From positions 256,001 to 320,000 of the forward strand of contig JAKFCY010000002.1 in assembly GCA_036676395.1 (NCBI GenBank): DNA of 64,000 nucleotides, in the 5' to 3' direction. The position numbers and the translations under genes were made by a program. This stretch comes from Bdellovibrio sp. Lineage in GTDB: Bacteria > Bdellovibrionota > Bdellovibrionia > Bdellovibrionales > Bdellovibrionaceae. Shown one piece after another: positions 3,336 through 16,419 of this stretch; the stretch's first letter is position 1, and each line of letters starts with the position of its first letter. The notes under the pieces are model-generated. The model made no database searches and was not told where the DNA came from. It saw only the letters and a program-made list of their open reading frames with translations.

Positions 3336-4073
3336 GTGACCGATACCCCTACAACCTTCACATTCAAACCTATTGGCTTTATTAAAAGCTGCTACCCCGA
3401 TAAATTCGGGGTGCCGAGGCAATCAGGCTTAGTGAAGCAAACGATTTCTGAATTAGCGATCATGCCTGAATGGCAGCCTGAATTTGCTCTGCAAGGTTTA
3501 GAAGAGTACTCGCATGTGTGGGTGACTTGGGTTTTTCACTTAAATTCGAATACTAAATATCATCCGAAAGTTCATCCACCTAGATTAAAAGGTGAAACGA
3601 TTGGCGTGTTTGCAACACGTTCTCCGCACAGACCAAATCCTTTGGGATTATCTTTAGCTACGGTTGAAAAAATTGAAGGCGGGAAGATTTATCTCGGCGG
3701 TTTGGATTTAGTGGATGGGACGCCGATTCTTGATATTAAACCGTATCTTCCGCAGTTTGAATCTTTGTCTGAATCTCGCGGTGGTTGGGCTACGAAAGAT
3801 GAACATCAGGTTAATAAAATACAAGTGAGCTTTACTGATGATGCGCGTGGTGTTTTGCAATCGTGGTCTTCGCGTTTAGAAAAATCAGAGTTAGAATCTG
3901 TGATTGTTGGTGTTATCAAGCAAGATCCGCGTCCTGTGATTTATCGTGGTTTTGAAGGTTCAGCGGATTCTCCGTACCGTAATGAACACGCTTTTAGACT
4001 ATATGATGGAGATATCCATTTCCGCTTTACTGCTCCTGATGCGGCCGAAGTATTCTCGATTAAGATCGTCTAA
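3336..4073 (+). CDS. tsaA: tRNA (N6-threonylcarbamoyladenosine37-N6)-methyltransferase TrmO/TsaA
   Basis: KFGVPRQSGL, GVFATRSPHRPNPLGLS, DLVDGTPILDIKPY and QDPRP motifs. Confidence 0.92.
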   Translation: MTDTPTTFTFKPIGFIKSCYPDKFGVPRQSGLVKQTISELAIMPEWQPEFALQGLEEYSHVWVTWVFHLNSNTKYHPKVHPPRLKGETIGVFATRSPHRPNPLGLSLATVEKIEGGKIYLGGLDLVDGTPILDIKPYLPQFESLSESRGGWATKDEHQVNKIQVSFTDDARGVLQSWSSRLEKSELESVIVGVIKQDPRPVIYRGFEGSADSPYRNEHAFRLYDGDIHFRFTAPDAAEVFSIKIV

Positions 4074-4281
4074 TTCGAGTTTTACCTGCAGGATTAAGAA
4101 AGTAAATTCAAAAACTCAGCAGAGTATAAATTATTAATATGAGAAACATGGCAAAATCTTGGCCAAGTATTTTAGGCGCGTAAACAAATTTTTTTGATAA
4201 ATCTCATTTTGTGTCTAAAGGTTTTTATATTTACTTCCGCTAAATATACTATCGTCCAACGGAACGTCGATAGGGGAAGAG

Positions 4282-4536
4282 ATGAAGCTGATTCAGGTTG
4301 CTATTGTATTGTGCTTTTTTACATTATTAGGTTGTACAGTAGGCAGTGGCGGAGGATTCAGCGCCATGTTCACAGAAAAAGAACCAGAAGCTAAGGAAGC
4401 TCGAAAGCAAATCGAAGATATTCAGTCCAACATTAATACAGATTCACGTTACGTCTTAAATTCAGACGAAGTTGTTTTTTTATCCGAACAAGGTGTTGTT
4501 ACTGATGAAGTAGAATTAAAAGGCTGGGTGAAATAA
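4282..4536 (+). CDS. Small lipoprotein, translationally coupled to the Rhs/teneurin-like gene
   Basis: SD AGGGGA; lipobox LLGC; stop overlaps the next start (TAATG). Confidence 0.7.
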   Translation: MKLIQVAIVLCFFTLLGCTVGSGGGFSAMFTEKEPEAKEARKQIEDIQSNINTDSRYVLNSDEVVFLSEQGVVTDEVELKGWVK

Positions 4537-7500
4537 TGAGAACACCAAGCTTATTTATTATATCCATCCTGTTCTTAGTTTCCCCCTTTGTAAGCGCAAG
4601 TAGTTTTCAAGGAAAAGCTCCAGAAAGTGGAATAATAATATCTATAAATCCGGAAAAAATTCCTTCTAAATCAGGCGAAAGTATACTGATTAACGGGACT
4701 ATTAAGTATGTCAAAAAGTCTCAATCTAAACCAAAGGATGATGTGTCTAATGGAAGTGATAAGAAAAATGGTCTACTTGAAGAATTTAAAGCTCAGGGTA
4801 TAGACATTGTAGGGGCATTTCCAAGCTCTGCAGTGGATATTTCAAGTGAATTGACTCTTGAAAGTTCATCAGACAACGAAATTCGATTCAGCTATCAAAG
4901 TAAAAATATTATTGCAGATGATCTTAATCAATTTTCATTAAAAGTTTATAATAATCATACTAATAAGAGCGCACTTAAAAAGTTATCTATCATTCAAGGA
5001 AAAATAGAAAAGCGCATACAGCTTTTGACCAAATTAAAAAACAAATTTGAAAGTGGTAAAGCTAAAAAGGAAGCTATCGCAGTTATTGAGAAAGAAATTG
5101 CCAAGCTTACTGCAATTTCCAGCAAAATCGCGAATAAGCTAAATACCAATGGAAATCTAATGGCAGAAAATACGTATGCTATTCAGGTTGATAATTTAAC
5201 TGCAAATTTCAGTAAAATTTCGACTGTTATGAATGATTTTCGCTTTGTCATTGATTCAAATATCGGCAGTGTTATTCAGGGCATGAGTGTGAATTTTAAA
5301 GCAAAAATAGTAAGTCTTTCTCATGCTAATGAAAACAGTGACTCTACTGAAGGCGGTGACGGTTATTTGGCTGAGTTTTATTTTAATGACCAAAAAGTAT
5401 CTTCGCAAAAAGTTATTGAACCGCGAAAAAATTTAAATATAGTTTTTGATTATGCAACAGCATCATTACAGTCAGCTGATCAAAATGTTTTCTCAATAGC
5501 ATTGTATCATCTTGATGATGCTGGTCAAAAAGGTCGAAAAATAGGAAGTTTAAATTATAAAATTCCTGTTATTACTGATTCTGTTAAACCAACTTGGTTA
5601 AGTGGCGCTGTGCCAAATCATCAAGATCGCTACGTTCAGCTATTAAGAACTATTAATCTTAAAACACAAGATAGCTTTGGTCGAATTGATCCACAGAGCT
5701 TTAAATTATTAGTGAATCGTCAGGGAGCGATCACGAATTTAAGTCATCTGATTTCCACAACAAAATTTGATGATGGGTCACGGTATGAATTTACTGGTGA
5801 TATAAATCCTCTGGAAGAGGGAGAATATAGTCTTTCAGCTAAAGTTTCAGATTTTGCGGGAAATGCTGCAGATACTTATAATGTGATGATTCATATTGAT
5901 CGAACAGTGCCTGTTGTTAATACCACGTTAGTCAATAATACATTAACTAACCAGACCAGCATTGAAGTCCCAATTACTGTAAATGATCTAAGCCCGACGG
6001 CTACAGATATTTATGTAAATAATGAACTTACCATGACCAGCGGACTTAAGGTTTTTTCAGCGAGTGCGACATTAACCATAGAAGGTAATAATATTGTTCG
6101 TATTGAAAGCCGTGACGCTGCGGGAAATGTCGCTCTCGTAAGAGAAATAGTTGTGGTGCGGGATACAACGCCACCAGTATTAAGTAATATATTACCTATC
6201 ACAAATTCAACCATCGACACAATTCAGTTCCCTGTGTCCGCAAATTCAAATGAAAAATTAGGATTCGTAAAAATAAATGACATGGCTGTTGCATTGACTG
6301 GCGAAAAAGTATCTTTTAGTGCAACTTATGCAGCAAAAAGCGAAGGTAATTTGTTGCTTAATATTACTTATGCTGATGAAGCTGGAAATGAAGGTTCAGA
6401 TTCTTATACGGTAAATATTAAAAGTAAGCTTTTAAATATCGATTTAGTGAATATCGGTACTTATGAAGATACTAAACTTTTAGTCACTGGTTTAGAGTAC
6501 GCTACAAGACCAGGCTCTAGAGTAGAAATTAGCACAGGATTTTTTGGATTTAATTCTGCCGAAATGGAATCCAATGAACATAATGGTTCATTTGCCCTAA
6601 CAATGAATTATTTTGAGAGTGCTATTCTCAAAGTAACGGATCTAAGCACCGGGGAAACGGCGCAAGGCACTTTAAGCTTTGATACAACTAAAACGAAATT
6701 GTCTGGAATCGTAAAAGATTCGAATAATGTACCATTGCCTGGTGTAACTGTAAGAATAACGGGCTCTGTGAGTACTTATGTTACTGATGGTGCAGGAATG
6801 TTTTCAATTAATAATGCTCCATCGGGGGATCAAAGTTTATTAGTAGATGGTAGTACAGTTTCCACAGCTGTTGCTGGTCCGAATAATAAATTTTTTGCGA
6901 CGAAAGTTTCGATAAATGTTGGACTTGGACAGAATAATGTTCTCGATAATCCTATTTATTTAACGCCTTTATATCTGGATGGCACGCAAACCGTTGTGCA
7001 AGCTGGTGTTGCAACAACGGTTAGTAGTGTGCATGCACCCGGTGTTGAGTTAAGAGTTCCAGCTAATATAGCAGTTTTTCCAAATGGGTCTAACATTGGA
7101 GCAATTAACGTTGTGAAGTTAAATGCAGATTTCGCTACAATTCCAGTTCCAGATTTTGCTGTACCCAACTTTGTATACGCTTTCGAGCCTTCGGGATTAA
7201 CTTTTAAACAAAGAGTTGAACTAAAGCTACCTAATGAAAATGAACTGCCTCCAGGAATGGAACTTCTTATTTATTCTATGAATAGTGCCAAAGGTAAATG
7301 GGAGGTCGATGGTGCAGCGAAAGTTTCTGAGGACGGCTTGAGTGTCGTGTCGAAACCAGGCTTGGGGATATCACATTTTAGCCCACTATACGCAGTACCA
7401 CTTGCCCCATTAATGTACGAAGTAAAAAATCCTAAATTGGCAGGAGTAGATGCATCGGAAGGAAGTCTTACGAAAAGTATTACGCTTCCAAGTTATAAAT

Positions 7501-10500
7501 CTCTAGGTATCGACATTACGCCGTCCTTAACATATAAAAGTGCATGGGCTGCGCCTTCGACAATCGTTTCAAATATCTTGGGATTACCTGAAACAAAAGT
7601 AGAAATGAATGGTTCATTTATTGATTCGGTATTTCAAGCAAAAACTGTAAATAGACTTTACTGCACGTACGATGAGTCAAACGTACAAACTTGCACTACG
7701 ATAGTAAGAAATTATTTAGATAGAATTGATAGCTCGTTTGTAGGTAATGTAAAAAGCTTTTACGAGCCGGAAGAAATTAAATCGCAATATTTTGTTGGAG
7801 GAATTGGAAACAGTTTAGCAAATGTCAATTTCACCAATTCAGTTTCTACACCTGTTCTGGGTGATTCCAAGTTCGCTGATAGTAATATAGTTTCTAAAGT
7901 TGGGACTTATCCGACCAAGCAGGAACGCAGGCCTCTTAAGTCCCAAGTTGGGTATTTTATCGAGTTAAAAAATCCTGAAAACGACGAATATTTGGAAACT
8001 GGAATTTATCCTAGTTTTGCAAGATACCAAATTACTTTCAAAAATATTCGTATTCTCACGGGCACCCAAGTTGTAACGGCGTATCGAAATGGAAAACGAA
8101 TTGGAGCGATTCGAAGAACCTACGATAATCGAGTTGAGACTCAAGTTTTGGATCAGGCGATGCCAAAAGATGTTTTGGGATCGTTGCTTGTACAATCAAA
8201 AGTTAAATCTAGTTATGGGCGTGGCTGGGATTTAAACGGTGTTCAGCAGATTGTTAATCCAGAAGGAAGTCGAATTCTGATTGAGAATGAAGACAATAGT
8301 CTTGCCACTTATGTACTAAATAATACGATTGAAAATGTATTCAATGCGAATGGAACTGAATTTGATCTTACGACAGCAGTAGATCTTTCACATTGGCCAA
8401 ATGCTTTGTTACAGAAAACGAGTGGTAGCACTAACTCAGTCATTAAATACAACTTATCGACTGGAAGTTGGAGTTCGGTCGGTTTAATCGATAGATATAA
8501 TGGGACAATTGGATCAGAAGGTTTAGATCAATGTCAGGCTCAATATACTGGTCCAACTTGTAGCGGTAGATATGGTCAATGTGGAGCTAGTTATAATGAA
8601 CTAAAGCAGCTGTCTTACATGCCAGTAGCATATAAATATGGCGTAAAACCTAATCTTTCTGGTGTAATTCAAGGGCAAGATGGGAACTATTACGGTTTAG
8701 ATTCGAAAAGCCATATGCTTTTTAAGTTACAGCAAGGAACAATTTCGAAGATGGCTGGTAACAGGTCGTCAGTATATGACTTTGTGAAAAGCAACACTGG
8801 CCTTTGGCGGTTGGAAATGAATCAAAACCAGATGTCTCAGCTTTGTCAGAATATTTTTGGCAAAGACTGTCCGTTTCAGCGCTACGAAACCGAATGGAAG
8901 TGGAAATGTGCGGATATGTCTGGATCCACTTTTTCTCCCGCTATATTCAGAAATGGTAAGAGCGTGTATTATAGGGGTAATTATCGTTTTTGTCCTACCT
9001 TCAATCAAATGGTTGAGAGTGGAGATTATTATGTGAATAATATCGAAGGTATCCAAGCGGTATATGATATTGAATCAAGTTGCGTGTCCCGAGGCGGTCA
9101 AAATGGTTATCATCCAAACCTTATTGCTCCGTTAGCTAATTTTACTGGTGATGTGGGCATCAGCGGATTTGCAGATGGTAATATTGCTAATCCGGACGTG
9201 ATTGGTTTGAATAATCCCCGTTCAATGTTAACTGATTTCGCTGGCAATATTATTTTTGCCGATTATGGTAATAATCGGGTGCGAAGAGTTAATTTAGCTG
9301 GGAATACAATTCAAACAATCGCAGGAAATGGTGCTACTAGCGACTCCGGAGATGGCGGTTCTGCTACATCTGCATCAATCTACCATCCGACAGGCTTAGC
9401 TATTGATGGTTTGGGTCAAATTTATATAGCTACAGAAAATGGTTACATTCGTAAAATTGATGTGAATGGCAATATTTCAACAGTTGCTGGGCGACCATTT
9501 GCTCATGGTGGATTATTAGCAAGTGAAGGAATAGCTACTGAGATGGTTTTGAATAATCCATCTGGACTCGTAGTCGATAGTGACAATTCACTTTTATATA
9601 TTGCTGATACAGGCAATAATAGGATTTTGCGTGTTGATCTTGTGACTAATGCCGCTATTACTGTTGCTGGAACTGGGAATTGCGATCTGTCTGGGCTTGG
9701 AAACAATACACCAGCATTGTCTGCATCACTTTGTGCGCCGTCGAATATCGGTTTAGATACCAACAAAAACTTGATCGTAGTAGATTCTGGCCACAAGATG
9801 ATTCGCCGTGTGGTGCTACATAGTGGTGCCGATCAACTTACGTATCTTCCGTCTAATAAGGATTTATCAAAATTAGTTAAAAGTTCAGATGGCACGTGGA
9901 CTCGTCATTACAGAAATGGATCTAAAGCTTATTTCAATGCAAGTGGTGCGCAGACTTCGATTGCAGATCGGGCAGGTCGTACAATCTCATTTAATTACGA
10001 TGCTGATGGCTTATTAGTGCAAATTAAAAATAATGTCACGAATCAGACTACTATTTTGGATTACAATTCAAATAATCAGCTTAAGAGTTTTAGGGATCCT
10101 GCGCTTCGTACAACAAAATTTTCCTATAGTGGAGAAATGTTAGAGCGGGTGGAATTTCCAGACACCTCTTCAAGATCTTATGCATATGACCTCAAAGGAT
10201 TAATGCTCAGCGAATTTGACCAGCTGTCTGCAGAAACTAAATTTGAATTTAACAAGTTCAACAGAGTTTCGAAAGTTATATTCCCGAATCTAACCGAGAC
10301 AAATGTAACTGATCAAGAAAGTGCGTCACTTTTGGCTGCAGACTTGGGTGACTTAAAAAGCTTCGGTTCCTCTCAAGATAACGTTAAAAGCCAAGTTATT
10401 GATTTAAGAGGCGTGAAAACTGAGTTTGTTAAAGGTTTTGATGGATTAGTAACTGAGGTATCAGATAGTAATGGAGTAGTTTCAAAAATTTACCACGATT

Positions 10501-13178
10501 TAGATGGTCGCATTATAAAAACTATTGATCCCGAGGATAAAGAACTTCAAATGAAGTATGATCCGAATAGTGGTGATCTAATTCAAGCTATTGATGTTGA
10601 AAATGATATAAAAACTTCTTTTACATACAATGTGTTCGGTCAGCCTGTTTCTGCAACTGATGGTTTGGGTACGATTGCATATGCTGAATATGATCCAGTC
10701 AGCGGGTTTTTATCTAAAACTAAATCAAGCGTTCCAGGTGTTGAAACAGAATATTTTTATAATCCCAATGGAACACTTTCTTTAAAAATAAGAAAAAAAG
10801 ATAACGAGAGTTTCAATACATCTTATGTATATGATTCCCTAGGAAATCTTAAAGAAGTTACTGATGCCGATAATAAAAAAGTAACATATCTATACGATGA
10901 TGCCGGTAATGTCGTGAAATCAATTCGACAGATTAGTGGATCTGTATCATCAGAAGTGAATTATGAATACGATGAAATGAATCGTCTGAATAAAGTAACT
11001 TCATCTAAAGGCGAGATTACTACATATAATTACTATCCGTCAGGCAAATTACATAAAGTAACAGATCCAAAAAGCAAAATATCGACATATGTTTACAACA
11101 ACATGGGACAGCTGCTTAGCAAACAACGATCTTCTGGCGAAGTGCAAACATTTGCATATGATCCTCATGGACAGTGGATTCACGAAACTGATCCAAATGG
11201 AGTTGTAAAGAAATACAACTACAATGGGATCAATCGACTATCTAGAGTTGAGCTTCCAGACGATCTAATTACTTATACATATAATTTAAACGGGGAATTA
11301 AAAACAGCCGCTAATAAAAATTCCAAAGTTTCATATGATAGGGATTCAATGGGAAGGTTGGCTGGTGATTATTTTGAGGGACAAGGGACCTTTGAAAATT
11401 TAGAGCCGCTTGCTATTACTTATGAGTATGATAAAAATAGCAATAGAACGAAGACTACGTTAAATGGCATTCAATCATATAATTATGCTTATGACGGATT
11501 AAATCGTTTGACACAAATTTCAAATCCATATGGTGATGTTTTTACATATGAGTATGATTCTTTAAATAGAGTTACTCGTCTAGCGCGCCCAAATGGTGAA
11601 ACGAAATATTCATACAAAGCTAATCACTTAATATCTGAGATTCAGCATAAGCTTAATGGTTTAGTGAAGAGTCAGTATCAATATGATTACGATTTGCGAA
11701 ATTTTATTACTCAAAAAAGGGATCTCGCATCTACTCAATCTTATTCATATGATTTAAATGGTCAACTATCTGGCGTACAAGGGGCAGAATCAGAGGCGTT
11801 CACTTATGATTCAGTTGGTAACCGCATATCCGATCAGGATGGGACCTACTCATATGATGCCACAACTGATAGGCTCATAGAGGATTATAAATATAGTTAC
11901 ATCTACGATAACAACGGTAATTTAATTGCTAAGAATCCTAAGAATCAGTCTGAAAAAGCATATCGTTATGAATATTCATCAACCAATCAGTTAAAACAAG
12001 TCTCTAGGTTTTCTGGACCTTTTGGAGCGGTCGAACAACAAGTAAAATTTGAATACGATGTCTTCGGAAGAAGAATGAAAAAGGAAATTGTAGATTCGAC
12101 AACAACTTCAAAAAATAACTACGCTGTGTATCGGTATGACGGTGATAACGTTATTAGAGAACTGAAATATACTTCTCAACGTTCTTCACTTGATGTAGTT
12201 GCTAACTACACTTATTCGATGGGTACTGATGACGTGCTGGCAGTTAATATTCCGACAACAGGTGAAATAAATAAAAAAGCAAAACAAGCAGGTAATTATT
12301 ATTTCTTAAAAGACCATCTTGGCAGTATCGTAGCTGTTTCGGATGTTCAAGGAGAGATTAAACAGCAGTATTCGTATTCTAGCTATGGAAATATTGTACA
12401 AGTAAAAGATGGTGCTGGAGTGGACATTTTATCAGATCCATTCATTGATAATCAATTTACATATGCCGGACGTGAGTTTGATTCAGAACTAAATCTGTAT
12501 TACAATCGTGCAAGATATTACGATTCTGCAATTGGTCGTTTCCTACAACAAGATCCTTTTCCAGGTAAGATTGGCATACCAAACTCAGTTGTAAACTCAT
12601 ACATATATGGATTAAATAACCCAACAATGTTCAGAGATCCATCTGGAAAATTTCCAGCTTTACTTGTTGCATTTGCTGTTGGGGCAATACTGGGTGGTTT
12701 CATGGCCGCATACCAACCTGGTGCAACATTCGGATCAGTTGTTGCGGGTGCATTGACTGGAGGAGCGCTTGCCGCTGCGGGAACGGCAATTGTTACACTG
12801 GGCGCACTTGGTGGGGCGGGGATAGCTGCAAAATTAGGTGCGACTGCGGGCTCAGCTGGCATGTTTTTAGGTGGAGCAATTGGTGGTGGTCTCGCAAACG
12901 TAGCATGGGGAATGTTTTTAGGTGTTCCCAAGGAATTACTTGCGTTATATGCTATTCAGGGATTTATCGGTGGCGGGATGCTTGCGCAAAGTAATTTCGG
13001 AGGCGCCTTTACAGGTAACAGAGTGGAAAATGTAGCTGAAGGTGTATCGACTGCAAATCAAAGTGCTGTTGGTGTTGCTACAGAGACTACGAATCCGATG
13101 CAAACGATTGAACTTAAAGTTACAGAACAAATAGATAACTGGGTTCAACCAGATGTAAAAGTTAATGTTCTGCCATAA
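4536..13178 (+). CDS. Giant secreted teneurin-like Rhs/YD-repeat protein with Ig domains, NHL propeller and hydrophobic C-terminal putative toxin
   Basis: Sec signal peptide; Ig repeats (DxxxP...DxAGN); carboxypeptidase-regulatory-like domain (LSGIVKDSNNVPLPGVTV); NHL repeats (LNNPRSM..IIFADYGNNRVRRV); YD repeats; Rhs core RARYYDSAIGRFLQQDP...NNPTMFRDPSG. Confidence 0.9.
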   Translation: MRTPSLFIISILFLVSPFVSASSFQGKAPESGIIISINPEKIPSKSGESILINGTIKYVKKSQSKPKDDVSNGSDKKNGLLEEFKAQGIDIVGAFPSSAVDISSELTLESSSDNEIRFSYQSKNIIADDLNQFSLKVYNNHTNKSALKKLSIIQGKIEKRIQLLTKLKNKFESGKAKKEAIAVIEKEIAKLTAISSKIANKLNTNGNLMAENTYAIQVDNLTANFSKISTVMNDFRFVIDSNIGSVIQGMSVNFKAKIVSLSHANENSDSTEGGDGYLAEFYFNDQKVSSQKVIEPRKNLNIVFDYATASLQSADQNVFSIALYHLDDAGQKGRKIGSLNYKIPVITDSVKPTWLSGAVPNHQDRYVQLLRTINLKTQDSFGRIDPQSFKLLVNRQGAITNLSHLISTTKFDDGSRYEFTGDINPLEEGEYSLSAKVSDFAGNAADTYNVMIHIDRTVPVVNTTLVNNTLTNQTSIEVPITVNDLSPTATDIYVNNELTMTSGLKVFSASATLTIEGNNIVRIESRDAAGNVALVREIVVVRDTTPPVLSNILPITNSTIDTIQFPVSANSNEKLGFVKINDMAVALTGEKVSFSATYAAKSEGNLLLNITYADEAGNEGSDSYTVNIKSKLLNIDLVNIGTYEDTKLLVTGLEYATRPGSRVEISTGFFGFNSAEMESNEHNGSFALTMNYFESAILKVTDLSTGETAQGTLSFDTTKTKLSGIVKDSNNVPLPGVTVRITGSVSTYVTDGAGMFSINNAPSGDQSLLVDGSTVSTAVAGPNNKFFATKVSINVGLGQNNVLDNPIYLTPLYLDGTQTVVQAGVATTVSSVHAPGVELRVPANIAVFPNGSNIGAINVVKLNADFATIPVPDFAVPNFVYAFEPSGLTFKQRVELKLPNENELPPGMELLIYSMNSAKGKWEVDGAAKVSEDGLSVVSKPGLGISHFSPLYAVPLAPLMYEVKNPKLAGVDASEGSLTKSITLPSYKSLGIDITPSLTYKSAWAAPSTIVSNILGLPETKVEMNGSFIDSVFQAKTVNRLYCTYDESNVQTCTTIVRNYLDRIDSSFVGNVKSFYEPEEIKSQYFVGGIGNSLANVNFTNSVSTPVLGDSKFADSNIVSKVGTYPTKQERRPLKSQVGYFIELKNPENDEYLETGIYPSFARYQITFKNIRILTGTQVVTAYRNGKRIGAIRRTYDNRVETQVLDQAMPKDVLGSLLVQSKVKSSYGRGWDLNGVQQIVNPEGSRILIENEDNSLATYVLNNTIENVFNANGTEFDLTTAVDLSHWPNALLQKTSGSTNSVIKYNLSTGSWSSVGLIDRYNGTIGSEGLDQCQAQYTGPTCSGRYGQCGASYNELKQLSYMPVAYKYGVKPNLSGVIQGQDGNYYGLDSKSHMLFKLQQGTISKMAGNRSSVYDFVKSNTGLWRLEMNQNQMSQLCQNIFGKDCPFQRYETEWKWKCADMSGSTFSPAIFRNGKSVYYRGNYRFCPTFNQMVESGDYYVNNIEGIQAVYDIESSCVSRGGQNGYHPNLIAPLANFTGDVGISGFADGNIANPDVIGLNNPRSMLTDFAGNIIFADYGNNRVRRVNLAGNTIQTIAGNGATSDSGDGGSATSASIYHPTGLAIDGLGQIYIATENGYIRKIDVNGNISTVAGRPFAHGGLLASEGIATEMVLNNPSGLVVDSDNSLLYIADTGNNRILRVDLVTNAAITVAGTGNCDLSGLGNNTPALSASLCAPSNIGLDTNKNLIVVDSGHKMIRRVVLHSGADQLTYLPSNKDLSKLVKSSDGTWTRHYRNGSKAYFNASGAQTSIADRAGRTISFNYDADGLLVQIKNNVTNQTTILDYNSNNQLKSFRDPALRTTKFSYSGEMLERVEFPDTSSRSYAYDLKGLMLSEFDQLSAETKFEFNKFNRVSKVIFPNLTETNVTDQESASLLAADLGDLKSFGSSQDNVKSQVIDLRGVKTEFVKGFDGLVTEVSDSNGVVSKIYHDLDGRIIKTIDPEDKELQMKYDPNSGDLIQAIDVENDIKTSFTYNVFGQPVSATDGLGTIAYAEYDPVSGFLSKTKSSVPGVETEYFYNPNGTLSLKIRKKDNESFNTSYVYDSLGNLKEVTDADNKKVTYLYDDAGNVVKSIRQISGSVSSEVNYEYDEMNRLNKVTSSKGEITTYNYYPSGKLHKVTDPKSKISTYVYNNMGQLLSKQRSSGEVQTFAYDPHGQWIHETDPNGVVKKYNYNGINRLSRVELPDDLITYTYNLNGELKTAANKNSKVSYDRDSMGRLAGDYFEGQGTFENLEPLAITYEYDKNSNRTKTTLNGIQSYNYAYDGLNRLTQISNPYGDVFTYEYDSLNRVTRLARPNGETKYSYKANHLISEIQHKLNGLVKSQYQYDYDLRNFITQKRDLASTQSYSYDLNGQLSGVQGAESEAFTYDSVGNRISDQDGTYSYDATTDRLIEDYKYSYIYDNNGNLIAKNPKNQSEKAYRYEYSSTNQLKQVSRFSGPFGAVEQQVKFEYDVFGRRMKKEIVDSTTTSKNNYAVYRYDGDNVIRELKYTSQRSSLDVVANYTYSMGTDDVLAVNIPTTGEINKKAKQAGNYYFLKDHLGSIVAVSDVQGEIKQQYSYSSYGNIVQVKDGAGVDILSDPFIDNQFTYAGREFDSELNLYYNRARYYDSAIGRFLQQDPFPGKIGIPNSVVNSYIYGLNNPTMFRDPSGKFPALLVAFAVGAILGGFMAAYQPGATFGSVVAGALTGGALAAAGTAIVTLGALGGAGIAAKLGATAGSAGMFLGGAIGGGLANVAWGMFLGVPKELLALYAIQGFIGGGMLAQSNFGGAFTGNRVENVAEGVSTANQSAVGVATETTNPMQTIELKVTEQIDNWVQPDVKVNVLP

Positions 13179-13186
13179 GGAGCTGA

Positions 13187-13795
13187 ATGCTAGAAATCTC
13201 CCCTGAAATTTATGCTCCTTCATATCCAGATTTTTTATGGCGGCGGCTATTTTCTGGCGCCGCCTTTACTTTTACCTCAGCCATGAAATATTACTTAATT
13301 TGTGTTGGCGCATTTTTTTTTCTTTTAACGATAAGTCCTTATGAGGTCGCAGCTAAGGGCATTGCTGAAAGAGTAATATTTTCTTTAATTGGTACTTTTG
13401 TGTTCTTATCTATATTGATTGTAGCAATTGCGATTCCTTTTTATTTTTTGATTTGGAAGAAAAAATGGCTTTATGGTTCGGACGAAGTAATCATAGTTTC
13501 CAAATCATCAAGTTCAACTCTTTCATATCAGAAACTTCAGAAAATAGTTTTAGATACTCCACGTTCTGCGACATTAGTTTTTGGAGATCCTAATTCAACA
13601 TTTGTGGTAAATACTTTTTGGTATGGTAATGGCGAAAAAGATTGGCTAGAGTTTATCAAATTTATTACGGCAAAACTTCCTTCTGTTGAAGAAAAGATTA
13701 GGGTACAGACTGGAAATGGTTTTCCTCCAGAAGAAATTCAGCTTCCTCCTTTAGAAGCTTACAGGACGATTGTAAGTCGGCTTAAACCTGTCTAA
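13187..13795 (+). CDS. Membrane protein, candidate immunity protein
   Basis: SD AAGGAG; starts 8 nt after the Rhs stop; two hydrophobic helices followed by a soluble domain. Confidence 0.55.
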   Translation: MLEISPEIYAPSYPDFLWRRLFSGAAFTFTSAMKYYLICVGAFFFLLTISPYEVAAKGIAERVIFSLIGTFVFLSILIVAIAIPFYFLIWKKKWLYGSDEVIIVSKSSSSTLSYQKLQKIVLDTPRSATLVFGDPNSTFVVNTFWYGNGEKDWLEFIKFITAKLPSVEEKIRVQTGNGFPPEEIQLPPLEAYRTIVSRLKPV

Positions 13796-15000: not shown

Positions 15001-15663
15001 ATGAAGACATTTCTTTTAATTTTATTATCATTAATATCAATTACTCAAAACTCTGTAGCTGCTGACGAGCCAGCTTACTGTGATCCAGAAACTTTTTTTC
15101 AAAAAGAAATTGAGACACAAGCTGGAATTTGGCGCCATCACACCTTTAGATTTGGCGATGTGATTTTATTAGGCGGAGCCATTGGCTATAGTAATCCATT
15201 AAAGGTCACAGGCTTTGCCGAAGAAAATTCGACAGCAACATCAGCAGAGAAGTACTGCACTTGGTATTACAACGACGGAAATGATTTTGCTTCTACGTTG
15301 TTTAATCATCATTACGTTACTAATCCGCAAAAAGTGACAGAAGTCACTGGCCCGCAAGAATATCGCGAAGTTTTAAAAGATCAGTTTGCAAAAGCTAACA
15401 TGAGTTTTTTATCGTGTTTAGAAAATCATAAATATCTGGCGATGGGCTGCAATGGCCAAATGCACCGCGGACCTACAGTTTTTGGAATGTTGTTAAGCTT
15501 TTCAGGCTGTAGCTCGAAAAATTCTTTAGCTATCGTGAATAAGTTGTGGGGTAAGAACGGCGTTAAGCCAGAAGTTCGCCAAGCCATTATCGAAGAAGGT
15601 TACAAGCTAGGAAACGACGACCCACAGGCTCGTCTAAGAATGCAAAAAGTTCTGGGCTATTAG
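15001..15663 (+). CDS. Secreted protein with CX5R (PTP/DSP-like) motif, paralogue 1
   Basis: Signal peptide; MGCNGQMHRGPT; colinear with the next ORF over its whole length. Confidence 0.6.
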   Translation: MKTFLLILLSLISITQNSVAADEPAYCDPETFFQKEIETQAGIWRHHTFRFGDVILLGGAIGYSNPLKVTGFAEENSTATSAEKYCTWYYNDGNDFASTLFNHHYVTNPQKVTEVTGPQEYREVLKDQFAKANMSFLSCLENHKYLAMGCNGQMHRGPTVFGMLLSFSGCSSKNSLAIVNKLWGKNGVKPEVRQAIIEEGYKLGNDDPQARLRMQKVLGY

Positions 15664-15759
15664 TTCAAAGGCTAGTTTTCTAGCCTAAGGTCTGCTGAAT
15701 TTACGCGACTTTCATACCGATAGGATAGGGATTCAATAACCCTAACCATCGGATGTGTG

Positions 15760-16419
15760 ATGAAAGCATTTCTATTAATTTTATTATCTGTAGTTACTTT
15801 AGCCCAGGTCGTCGCTGCTTCAGAGCCGGCTTATTGTGAACCTGAAAACTTTTTTAAGAAAGAATTTGATCCACACGAAAATATTTGGCGCGATCATGCG
15901 TTTAAGTTCGGTGATGTTGTTTTATTAGGTGGAGCGATCGGCTACAGTAACTCGCGCAAAGTGGCTGAATTTGCAGAAGAAAATTCAACAGCTTCGGCAG
16001 CCGAAAAATACTGTACTTGGTACTACAACGAAGGCAATGACAATGCGGCGGGGTTATTTAACCATCATTTCGTTTCGAATCCTAAAAAAGTCACGACGGT
16101 TACAGGCCCTAAAGAGTATCGCGCAGTTTTAAAAGATCAGTTTGCAAAATCAAAGAACAGTTTTTTATCGTGTTTAGAAAAACATAAAATTCTAGTGATG
16201 GGCTGCAATGGCCAAATGCACCGCGGCCCAACCGTGTTCGGAATGTTATTGGGTTTTTCGGGCTGTAGCTCAAAAAATGCGTTAACGATCGTGAATAAGC
16301 TTTGGGGTAAAAATGGTGTTAAACCAGAAGTTCGCCAGGCGATTATCGAAGAAGGCTACAAGTTAGGAAACGAAGATCCAAAGGCCCGCCTAAGAATGCA
16401 AAAGGCTTTAGGTTACTAA
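15760..16419 (+). CDS. Secreted protein with CX5R (PTP/DSP-like) motif, paralogue 2
   Basis: Signal peptide; identical MGCNGQMHRGPTVFGMLL core; tandem duplicate. Confidence 0.6.
   Translation: MKAFLLILLSVVTLAQVVAASEPAYCEPENFFKKEFDPHENIWRDHAFKFGDVVLLGGAIGYSNSRKVAEFAEENSTASAAEKYCTWYYNEGNDNAAGLFNHHFVSNPKKVTTVTGPKEYRAVLKDQFAKSKNSFLSCLEKHKILVMGCNGQMHRGPTVFGMLLGFSGCSSKNALTIVNKLWGKNGVKPEVRQAIIEEGYKLGNEDPKARLRMQKALGY

Follow-up and report, generated by a model that had tools for sequence, protein, structure and literature searches.

A predicted teneurin-like toxin cassette of Bdellovibrio and a candidate lipoprotein anchor for its giant carrier

A stretch of 64,000 nucleotides from Bdellovibrio sp. 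(assembly GCA_036676395.1, contig JAKFCY010000002.1, positions 256,001 to 320,000 of the forward strand; hereafter the window) contains three consecutive genes that a preliminary description, made from the sequence, had read as a toxin cassette composed of a lipoprotein, a giant Rhs carrier and a membrane immunity candidate. The three open reading frames (ORFs) were confirmed at 4282-4536 (84 aa), 4536-13178 (2880 aa) and 13187-13795 (202 aa), and the overlap of the first two at TAATG and the gap of 8 nt before the third are present as described. Matches to the Pfam and NCBIfam families Big_13, CarboxypepD_reg, TEN_NHL, RHS_repeat and Rhs_assc_core occur along the carrier in the order that had been given for its immunoglobulin (Ig) repeats, carboxypeptidase-regulatory-like domain, NHL propeller, YD shell and Rhs core, and the downstream protein has the two hydrophobic segments expected of a two-transmembrane (2-TM) protein. 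In two public runs of a single study, which may be the origin of this DNA, a 12-kb stretch lies unbroken within one contig. Evidence from sequence and from structural models indicates that the carrier belongs, as a divergent member, to the bacterial teneurin-like proteins (TLPs), and links the lipoprotein to the N-terminal domain (N-domain) of the carrier; the features are collected in Table 1.

TLPs are defined by an FN-plug, an NHL propeller and a YD shell (PMC13018210). TEN_NHL scored 50.4 bits in the carrier, against a cut-off of 27.1, and was also above the cut-off in 40 of 40 related members. The best sequence matches in the Protein Data Bank (PDB) were the Bacillus TLP entries 9pt5 and 9ifo (E 2e-54), the former aligning with carrier residues 1569-2706, and RHS_repeat and TIGR03696 also match, which places a YD shell and an Rhs core after the NHL propeller. 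Comparison by hhalign with four canonical TLPs gave a probability of 89.5 for the TTR domain (E 2e-6) and 71.4 for the TIP domain (E 3.6e-5), and ZU5 was matched in 16 of the 40 members. An AlphaFold2 (AF2) model of residues 715-1790, built with 40 sequences and with the shell left outside, reached a predicted local distance difference test (pLDDT) value of 77.1 and a predicted template modelling (pTM) score of 0.59; a Foldseek search with this model ranked 9ifo first, and eight of the nine entries that came next were teneurins. By VIA, model residues 246-1076 aligned with 9ifo 709-1278 over 473 residues (Z 30.7, rmsd 12.0), about 300 of which belong to the NHL propeller, so most of the score comes from that domain, which aligned with 6fb3 over 303 residues (Z 29.9, rmsd 3.0). 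The VIA alignments to four entries begin at model residues 246-256, which is the start of the plug. The teneurin-like superfold proposed in the preliminary description is thus supported by sequence for the NHL propeller, the YD shell and the TTR and TIP domains, and by fold for the plug and NHL together, but not by sequence for the plug: Pfam FN-plug_TEN was absent among the families listed (25 of 28) for the 40 members.

The closest characterised system is BiTLP of Bacillus inaquosorum (9ifo/9pt5), with which the carrier shares the succession of signal peptide, Ig, TTR, TIP, plug, NHL, YD shell and Rhs autoprotease, a variable, hydrophobic tip of ~15-17 kDa followed by a downstream gene, and the lack of a delivery machine. 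The carrier differs from BiTLP (PMC13018210) in a plug that is unrecognisable by sequence and lengthened by hairpins, in an NHL insertion, in an Asp spacing of 28 instead of 24, and in the conserved Ser of the second cleavage site in the plug, which is not evident here. One of the two long plug hairpins varies from 40 to 112 aa across the 40 members, and the Cys-rich NHL insertion measures 151 aa in the window carrier versus 59-105 aa in 39 relatives; these elements may form a variable binding surface. Arg2660, Asp2673 and Asp2701 are present, the Arg preceding the first Asp by 13 residues just as it does in BiTLP, and the spacing of 28 between the autoprotease Asp residues is found in 28 of 29 loci. 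The tripeptide EGS at 975-977 resembles the BiTLP cleavage site E722-G723-S724 but is a doubtful counterpart, as it occurs in 2 of the 40 members and is not conserved; in an alignment made by eye, it sits about 7 residues past the site equivalent to the canonical CGSII motif.

Table 1. Features of the three-gene cassette and of the inserted DNA, in window coordinates
Feature	Positions	Strand	Evidence or remark
Small lipoprotein 'clamp' (candidate)	4282..4536	+	lipobox LLG-C18; Gly/Ser-rich linker CTVGSGGG; C-terminal domain of ~45 aa, acidic and helical
Carrier signal peptide, Sec/SPI-type, residues 1-21, without lipobox	4536..4598	+	read by eye
N-domain, residues 27-352	4614..5591	+	AF2 model, alignment
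Basic helical hairpin inside N-domain, residues 144-203 (60 aa)	4965-5144	+	
Bacterial Ig-like repeats (putative stalk)	5592..6677	+	Big_13 at residues 408-455, tandem sub-repeats
TTR-like (715-812) and TIP/ZU5-like (813-955) domains	6678..7400	+	hhalign against 4 canonical TLPs
FN-plug equivalent, residues 956-1260, two long beta-hairpins	7401..8315	+	model, Foldseek, VIA
NHL beta-propeller, residues 1261-1771, Cys-rich insertion	8316..9848	+	Pfam, model, VIA
YD shell and Rhs core	9849..12647	+	Arg2660, Asp2673, Asp2701; DPSG 2701-2704
C-terminal tip, 176 aa, likely membrane-acting toxin	12648..13178	+	hydropathy; no Pfam/NCBIfam family
2-TM immunity candidate, orphan	13187..13795	+	homologue search matches only itself
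Insert extent	4064..13787	.	homology to relatives stops near 4063, restarts 13786-13788

The first Cys of the carrier is residue 1043, and a separate lipoprotein is encoded upstream; for neither this lipoprotein nor the N-domain did Pfam, NCBIfam, Atlas or homologue searches yield a family. The relationship between the two was examined in 50 non-duplicate carrier loci, 32 with the 325-aa N-domain and 18 without it, four of the latter being dropped because the N-terminus or the upstream DNA is missing. A lipoprotein gene lies directly upstream in 30 of the 32 N-domain loci (27 by script, three read by eye) and in none of the 14 informative loci without the domain, 6 of which encode carriers with a lipobox of their own. 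The two exceptions among the N-domain loci have a group II intron reverse transcriptase upstream (L052) or a lipobox on the carrier itself (L072). The N-terminal extension of L072 was tried as a fused lipoprotein domain and failed to score (E 0.85), and the ORFs upstream of L062 and L076 were discarded as lipoprotein candidates because they are non-homologous. Mapped on a quick tree of the core, the presence of the lipoprotein-domain pair switches 7-9 times; 6 independent pairs of members, taken on starred branches, agree in direction (sign test, median p 0.03). Lipoprotein identity tracks that of the N-domain (partial r 0.74) and not that of the core (-0.06). The lipobox Cys is invariant in 28 of 28 lipoproteins, in alignment rows that were cut at a Cys; the lipoprotein tail is acidic in all 28, the hairpin is basic in 31 of 32, and Lys156 of the hairpin is invariant.

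The pairing extends beyond the carriers described here. Profiles of the lipoprotein and of the N-domain, run separately on 401 Bdellovibrionota genomes, gave 25 matches each; 24 of the 25 lipoprotein matches lie 78-168 nt upstream of an N-domain match, and 24 of the 25 N-domain matches have a lipoprotein. While 18 of the 24 paired loci are in the training alignments, six are outside them, and what carries the N-domain there is a canonical TLP matching Pfam FN-plug and TTR (L092), a further Rhs protein (L095), a giant with PKD/Ig domains (L090 and L094), a fragment made of Ig repeats or a gene that is truncated. A representative library contributed 133 N-domain proteins, of which the 66 of at least 900 aa were sorted by script into 51 of the carrier clade, 3 other YD-rich proteins and 12 without Rhs, some of which are fragments or weak matches; full-length members include RCC1/PKD giants of 2500-4900 aa without an Rhs shell. 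In one protein (P0094), a lipobox, a lipoprotein domain (E 6e-11) and an N-domain are fused in one chain. The N-domain was not found in plasmids.

Several loci of this kind have additional features. At L090 (2041-10855), the anchor pair with its PKD giant is followed by two paralogous lipoproteins that share a D-rich motif with the C-terminus of the giant, and the same genome has, at L091 (1428-2928), an anchor pair with a giant cut to 197 aa. An extra module of ~290 aa precedes the N-domain in P0080, P0154, P0157, P0166 and P0185.

Structural models also point to an interaction. The AF2 model of the N-domain (pLDDT 87.3, pTM 0.86) is an Ig sandwich with an inserted hairpin, followed by a second Ig domain; comparison with the PDB and Atlas gave no whole-domain fold match, and since generic Ig and hairpin matches were all that was found, a new fold is not thereby established. 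A complex model of the lipoprotein with the N-domain scored 0.83, compared to 0.46 for the best control, on a scale whose mark was reached by 116 of 157 solved pairs and 2 of 215 mismatched pairs. The runs share at least 98% of contacts, the pLDDT of the partner is at least 84, and the modelled interface is the hairpin, where Lys156 touches the conserved Tyr57 of the lipoprotein, so the prediction supports binding of the lipoprotein to this hairpin. We know of no solved complex of like kind. The preliminary description had offered the lipoprotein as a tether or chaperone, a role with which the pairing and the complex model agree; it had missed the specific partner in the N-terminal domain, and the lipoprotein is not tied to the toxin.

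The C-terminal tip (17.2 kDa) consists of 36% Gly plus Ala and contains 3 hydrophobic segments and 10 GxxxG motifs. A variable C-terminus and the swapping of C-terminus and immunity pairs among homologues had been anticipated, and both were found. Comparing the window with 28 relatives (29 complete loci), the last 300 residues of the core are 36-50% identical and the tips, which span 126-218 aa, only 19-36%. Turnover of tips and downstream genes is evident from orphan core-tip cassettes behind the main gene (L016, L051, L061 and L064), and from L069 and L087, which belong to different families and share both the tip (E 3e-25) and the downstream gene (E 9e-10). A hydrophobic segment is found in 27 of the 29 tips and in 22 of 26 downstream genes; the other four have a lipobox, an outer-membrane protein (OMP)-barrel match or a signal-like start by eye, so all 26 look targeted to the envelope, which fits toxins acting on membranes or in the periplasm. 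These features make it likely that the tip is an antibacterial membrane toxin and the 202-aa protein its antidote. In published TLPs, the Rhs core cleaves itself, several tips are toxic and the downstream gene rescues, and the hydrophobic tip of BiTLP permeabilised Escherichia coli only when it carried a signal peptide (PMC13018210). The toxin part is therefore of a known kind, bacterial TLPs having been characterised as toxin/immunity systems in 2026, a point that the preliminary description did not take into account.

A profile of the TTR-plug region, searched against the same 401 genomes, placed the carrier clade in 27 of them, from 22 genera. From the best 120 matches listed, 68 homologues with coverage of the Rhs or plug region were chosen, and a core with a tip is visible in 64 of these, the tips being 119-223 aa long and mostly Gly/Ala-rich and hydrophobic. 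A few carry, by eye, enzyme-like motifs that we take to be PLA2-like or HExxH, and Ntox37 matched the tip of P0104 below its cut-off (E 0.0027). One group (L018:10548-12370, L044:5800-6590, P0023, P0053 and P0078) has tips with the presumed PLA2-like motif, followed by OMP-barrel-like genes and a short duplicated tip end; in P0023, the N-domain is the closest to that of the window (66%) and the tip is nevertheless different, of the PLA2-like type.

The cassette is inserted at a variable site between trmO, which is present in 52 of 52 genus genomes, and a 2-oxoglutarate (2OG) oxygenase gene. In 10 genus genomes (the six closest and four others), the cassette was found at this site in none; the two flanking genes are only 0.1-0.6 kb apart in 7, so the adjacency that the preliminary description had suggested looking for in relatives holds there, while 3 carry other cargo of 5.6-6.4 kb. 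Homology to relatives ends on the left near 4063, at the end of trmO, and restarts at 13786-13788, which leaves the final two codons of the downstream gene, with its stop codon, in DNA that is conserved in the host. The insert ends show no terminal repeats and no integrase, and no enrichment of promoter or terminator sites was found. The GC content of the block is 0.373; when the contig is divided into 285 bins of equal size, these have 0.398 +/- 0.011, and 1% of them are lower than the block. Among 2618 ORFs, the carrier gene lies at the 3rd percentile for GC at third codon positions, the 93rd for ATA share and the 94th for AGA/AGG share, whereas the lipoprotein gene has zero ATA and zero AGA codons, so the impression of an AT-rich block with frequent ATA and AGA codons is borne out for the block and the carrier gene and not for the lipoprotein gene. 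In a quick tree built from the TTR-to-NHL region, the window carrier sits among members of other genera of the family, apart from most genus members, which fits lateral gain. The low GC, the empty or different site in 10 of 10 relatives and the tree placement all agree with the earlier view that the cassette was acquired. The cargo of the three filled sites (L024:6005-11613, L025:5647-11291 and L027:891-5483) includes a family 5 solute-binding protein, a YcaO-like protein, an orphan histidine kinase and a GNAT protein, with a small secreted-looking peptide ORF in front in two and a Fic/helix-turn-helix pair behind in two; it is divergent among the three and looks like a peptide-modification or signalling module.

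How such a protein could reach the surface is a question to which the genome, 99.3% complete, offers some clues. The preliminary description noted no PAAR, VgrG or other gene of a type VI secretion system (T6SS) in the window, and VipB/TssC, PAAR and VgrG (Phage_base_V) were unmatched even across the whole genome, which supports independence from a T6SS. The carrier thus resembles T6SS Rhs effectors (Tse5, Tse15, RhsA, Tre23) in its YD shell, Rhs core and layout of tip plus immunity gene, but differs in having a Sec signal, an NHL propeller and a plug in a genome without PAAR, VgrG and TssC. For a type II secretion system (T2SS), GspD and, 11 kb away, GspN were found over the cut-off; Pfam T2SSN found nothing. 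According to PMC12802150, surface display through the T2SS requires that the residues behind the lipobox be rich in Gly/Ser or Asn/Asp, and in Acinetobacter the motif is needed for GspN-dependent display. More than four Gly/Ser occur in the 7 residues after the Cys in 11 of 26 members of the lipoprotein family versus 3 of 126 other pattern-predicted lipoproteins of the genome, one family member being unscored and the members being kin, which inflates the contrast. The lipoprotein is in this respect like the T2SS/GspN surface lipoproteins PulA and InvL (PMC12802150), except that there the passenger itself is acylated and here the lipid would sit on a separate protein of 67 residues.

On balance, and with a modest lean in its favour, we read the locus as a divergent TLP cassette whose carrier is likely held on the cell surface by a predicted lipoprotein clamp, whose shell would cut off and store a probably membrane-damaging tip, and whose downstream gene would confer immunity. 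In such a scheme, Sec would take both the lipoprotein and the carrier across the inner membrane, the lipoprotein would be acylated and then bind the folded carrier in the periplasm, and the pair would exit through the T2SS (GspD, GspN), with the lipids keeping it anchored. The Ig repeats could act as a stalk, the Rhs core would cleave after Gly2704, and on contact the tip would insert into the inner membrane of a rival from the periplasmic side. A broader and more tentative proposal, in which our confidence falls just short of even, is that Bdellovibrionota possess a portable two-part anchor, in which a 67-residue acidic lipoprotein clamps a basic hairpin of a dedicated N-terminal domain and takes non-lipidated giants of 200-500 kDa out through the T2SS as piggy-back cargo (two kinds of teneurin-like toxin, and adhesins of the PKD/Ig and RCC1 kinds) for display on the surface.

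The lipoprotein might instead be a periplasmic secretion chaperone or pilot that is left behind after export of the same toxin, so that the carrier is released, an explanation that we regard as unlikely. The co-occurrence and complex-model evidence suits it just as well, 8 of the 14 informative carriers that lack the pair also lack a lipobox, and there is precedent in membrane-bound T2SS chaperones that are encoded beside their substrate and needed for its secretion (PMC4713064). Such chaperones, CpaB and LipB, resemble the lipoprotein in being small, membrane-anchored partners encoded next to a secreted protein; they are, however, anchored by a TM helix at the N-terminus and serve one specific client, in contrast to a lipobox Cys and a single portable domain borne by several unrelated passengers, which is not what a fold-specific client would look like. 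The fusion in P0094 and the lipobox of six relatives point to anchoring, and the Gly/Ser-rich stretch after the lipobox resembles a surface-sorting signal. Another explanation, in our judgement improbable, makes the carrier mainly an adhesin or recognition protein, whose hydrophobic tip would anchor it in a membrane or act in fusion without being toxic, and whose downstream gene would be no antidote. This would suit a tip without an enzyme fold and an anchor pair that also serves PKD and RCC1 giants without an Rhs shell, and mosquito SGS1 (PMC9935623) offers an analogy: predicted TM helices directly follow its Rhs core and are stored in the shell, and they align with the start of the tip, albeit in a low-complexity region (bias 15.5). 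SGS1 is, in contrast to the carrier, eukaryotic, with a Tc-like shell, no signal peptide and a further domain behind the helices, and the turnover of tips and downstream genes, the orphan cassettes, the co-transferred pair, the toxin-like tips of some relatives and the toxicity of the hydrophobic BiTLP tip (PMC13018210) all speak for a toxin.

If the tip is a toxin, its target is likely to be competing bacteria, kin included, more than prey. The host lineage is predatory, and a weapon used against prey cells would accord with this, as well as with the enrichment of TLPs in predatory Myxococcota (PMC13018210). Nevertheless, the presence of the clade in so few genomes of the phylum (27 of 401) and its absence from the site in all 10 genus relatives make predation a very improbable purpose, and a dedicated downstream gene implies that the producer's own kind is susceptible.

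Other observations weigh against the reading preferred here, of a surface-held TLP toxin with a lipoprotein clamp. The plug gave no sequence-level match to profiles of canonical TLPs (1 and 4 TLPs compared), and the tip and the 202-aa protein have no family in Pfam, NCBIfam, Atlas or homologue searches. L017 and L048 share a downstream gene and not a tip, while L017 and L067 share a tip and not a downstream gene; in addition, the end of the downstream gene coincides exactly with the insertion junction, where the gene may have been cut short. One control of the complex test scored 0.46, the P0094 fusion is represented by just one sequence on one contig, and, as eight of the 14 carriers lacking the pair have no identified anchor, anchoring is not universal. 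The Gly/Ser/Asp/Asn-rich motif is missing from 7 self-lipidated carriers (0-2 of 7 residues), and this weakens the T2SS route as well as the equivalence; linkers of Gly/Ser are generic, the sorting rule comes from other phyla, and passage of a 314-kDa shell through the secretin may be doubtful.

With respect to earlier work, the toxin architecture has been known since 2026 and the portable anchor of a lipoprotein and its domain is apparently undescribed. The portions of PMC13018210 considered here list six phyla, Bdellovibrionota not among them, base surface location on bioinformatic evidence only, and leave display and delivery open; 11 of its supplements contain no Bdellovibrio-type name, one further scanned file lying outside the search. 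The TLPs described there have their own lipoprotein signals or S-layer and cell-wall domains, unlike the carrier, whose anchor would be a separate lipoprotein. A literature search found no description of TLPs in Bdellovibrionota or of the lipoprotein/N-domain pair, most subscription papers being outside its reach, and passages of PMC3818213, PMC3482391 and PMC12419801 concern other Rhs or lipocone proteins. The proposal names a specific, small candidate anchor and export route for the display left open in PMC13018210, and it adds predatory Bdellovibrionota to the known range of teneurin-like toxins. The plug of this clade is remodelled and escapes sequence profiles, which is of importance when bacterial ancestors of the animal teneurins are sampled. 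If the prediction is true, the clamp could serve in general as a tag by which large folded proteins are displayed.

Additional genes in the genome and the window merit mention. The same genome (G000) contains other Rhs genes, two of about 1317 aa and one partial (C2:1277049-1281002, C3:55197-59153 and C3:51252-52466), with different tips and downstream genes and without the lipoprotein or N-domain. On C2, more than 10 long secreted-looking proteins (e.g., 2131743-2139800 and 1297329-1304516) share an N-terminal TTYQAKI-like motif. Within the window, two tandem 220-aa paralogues at 15001-16419, the first without a Pfam match, have no counterpart between the 2OG gene and the gene that follows it in the seven relatives with coverage of this stretch and are read as a second insertion, and tandem paralogous outer-membrane-like genes at 62-1881, without Pfam matches, are kept in relatives.

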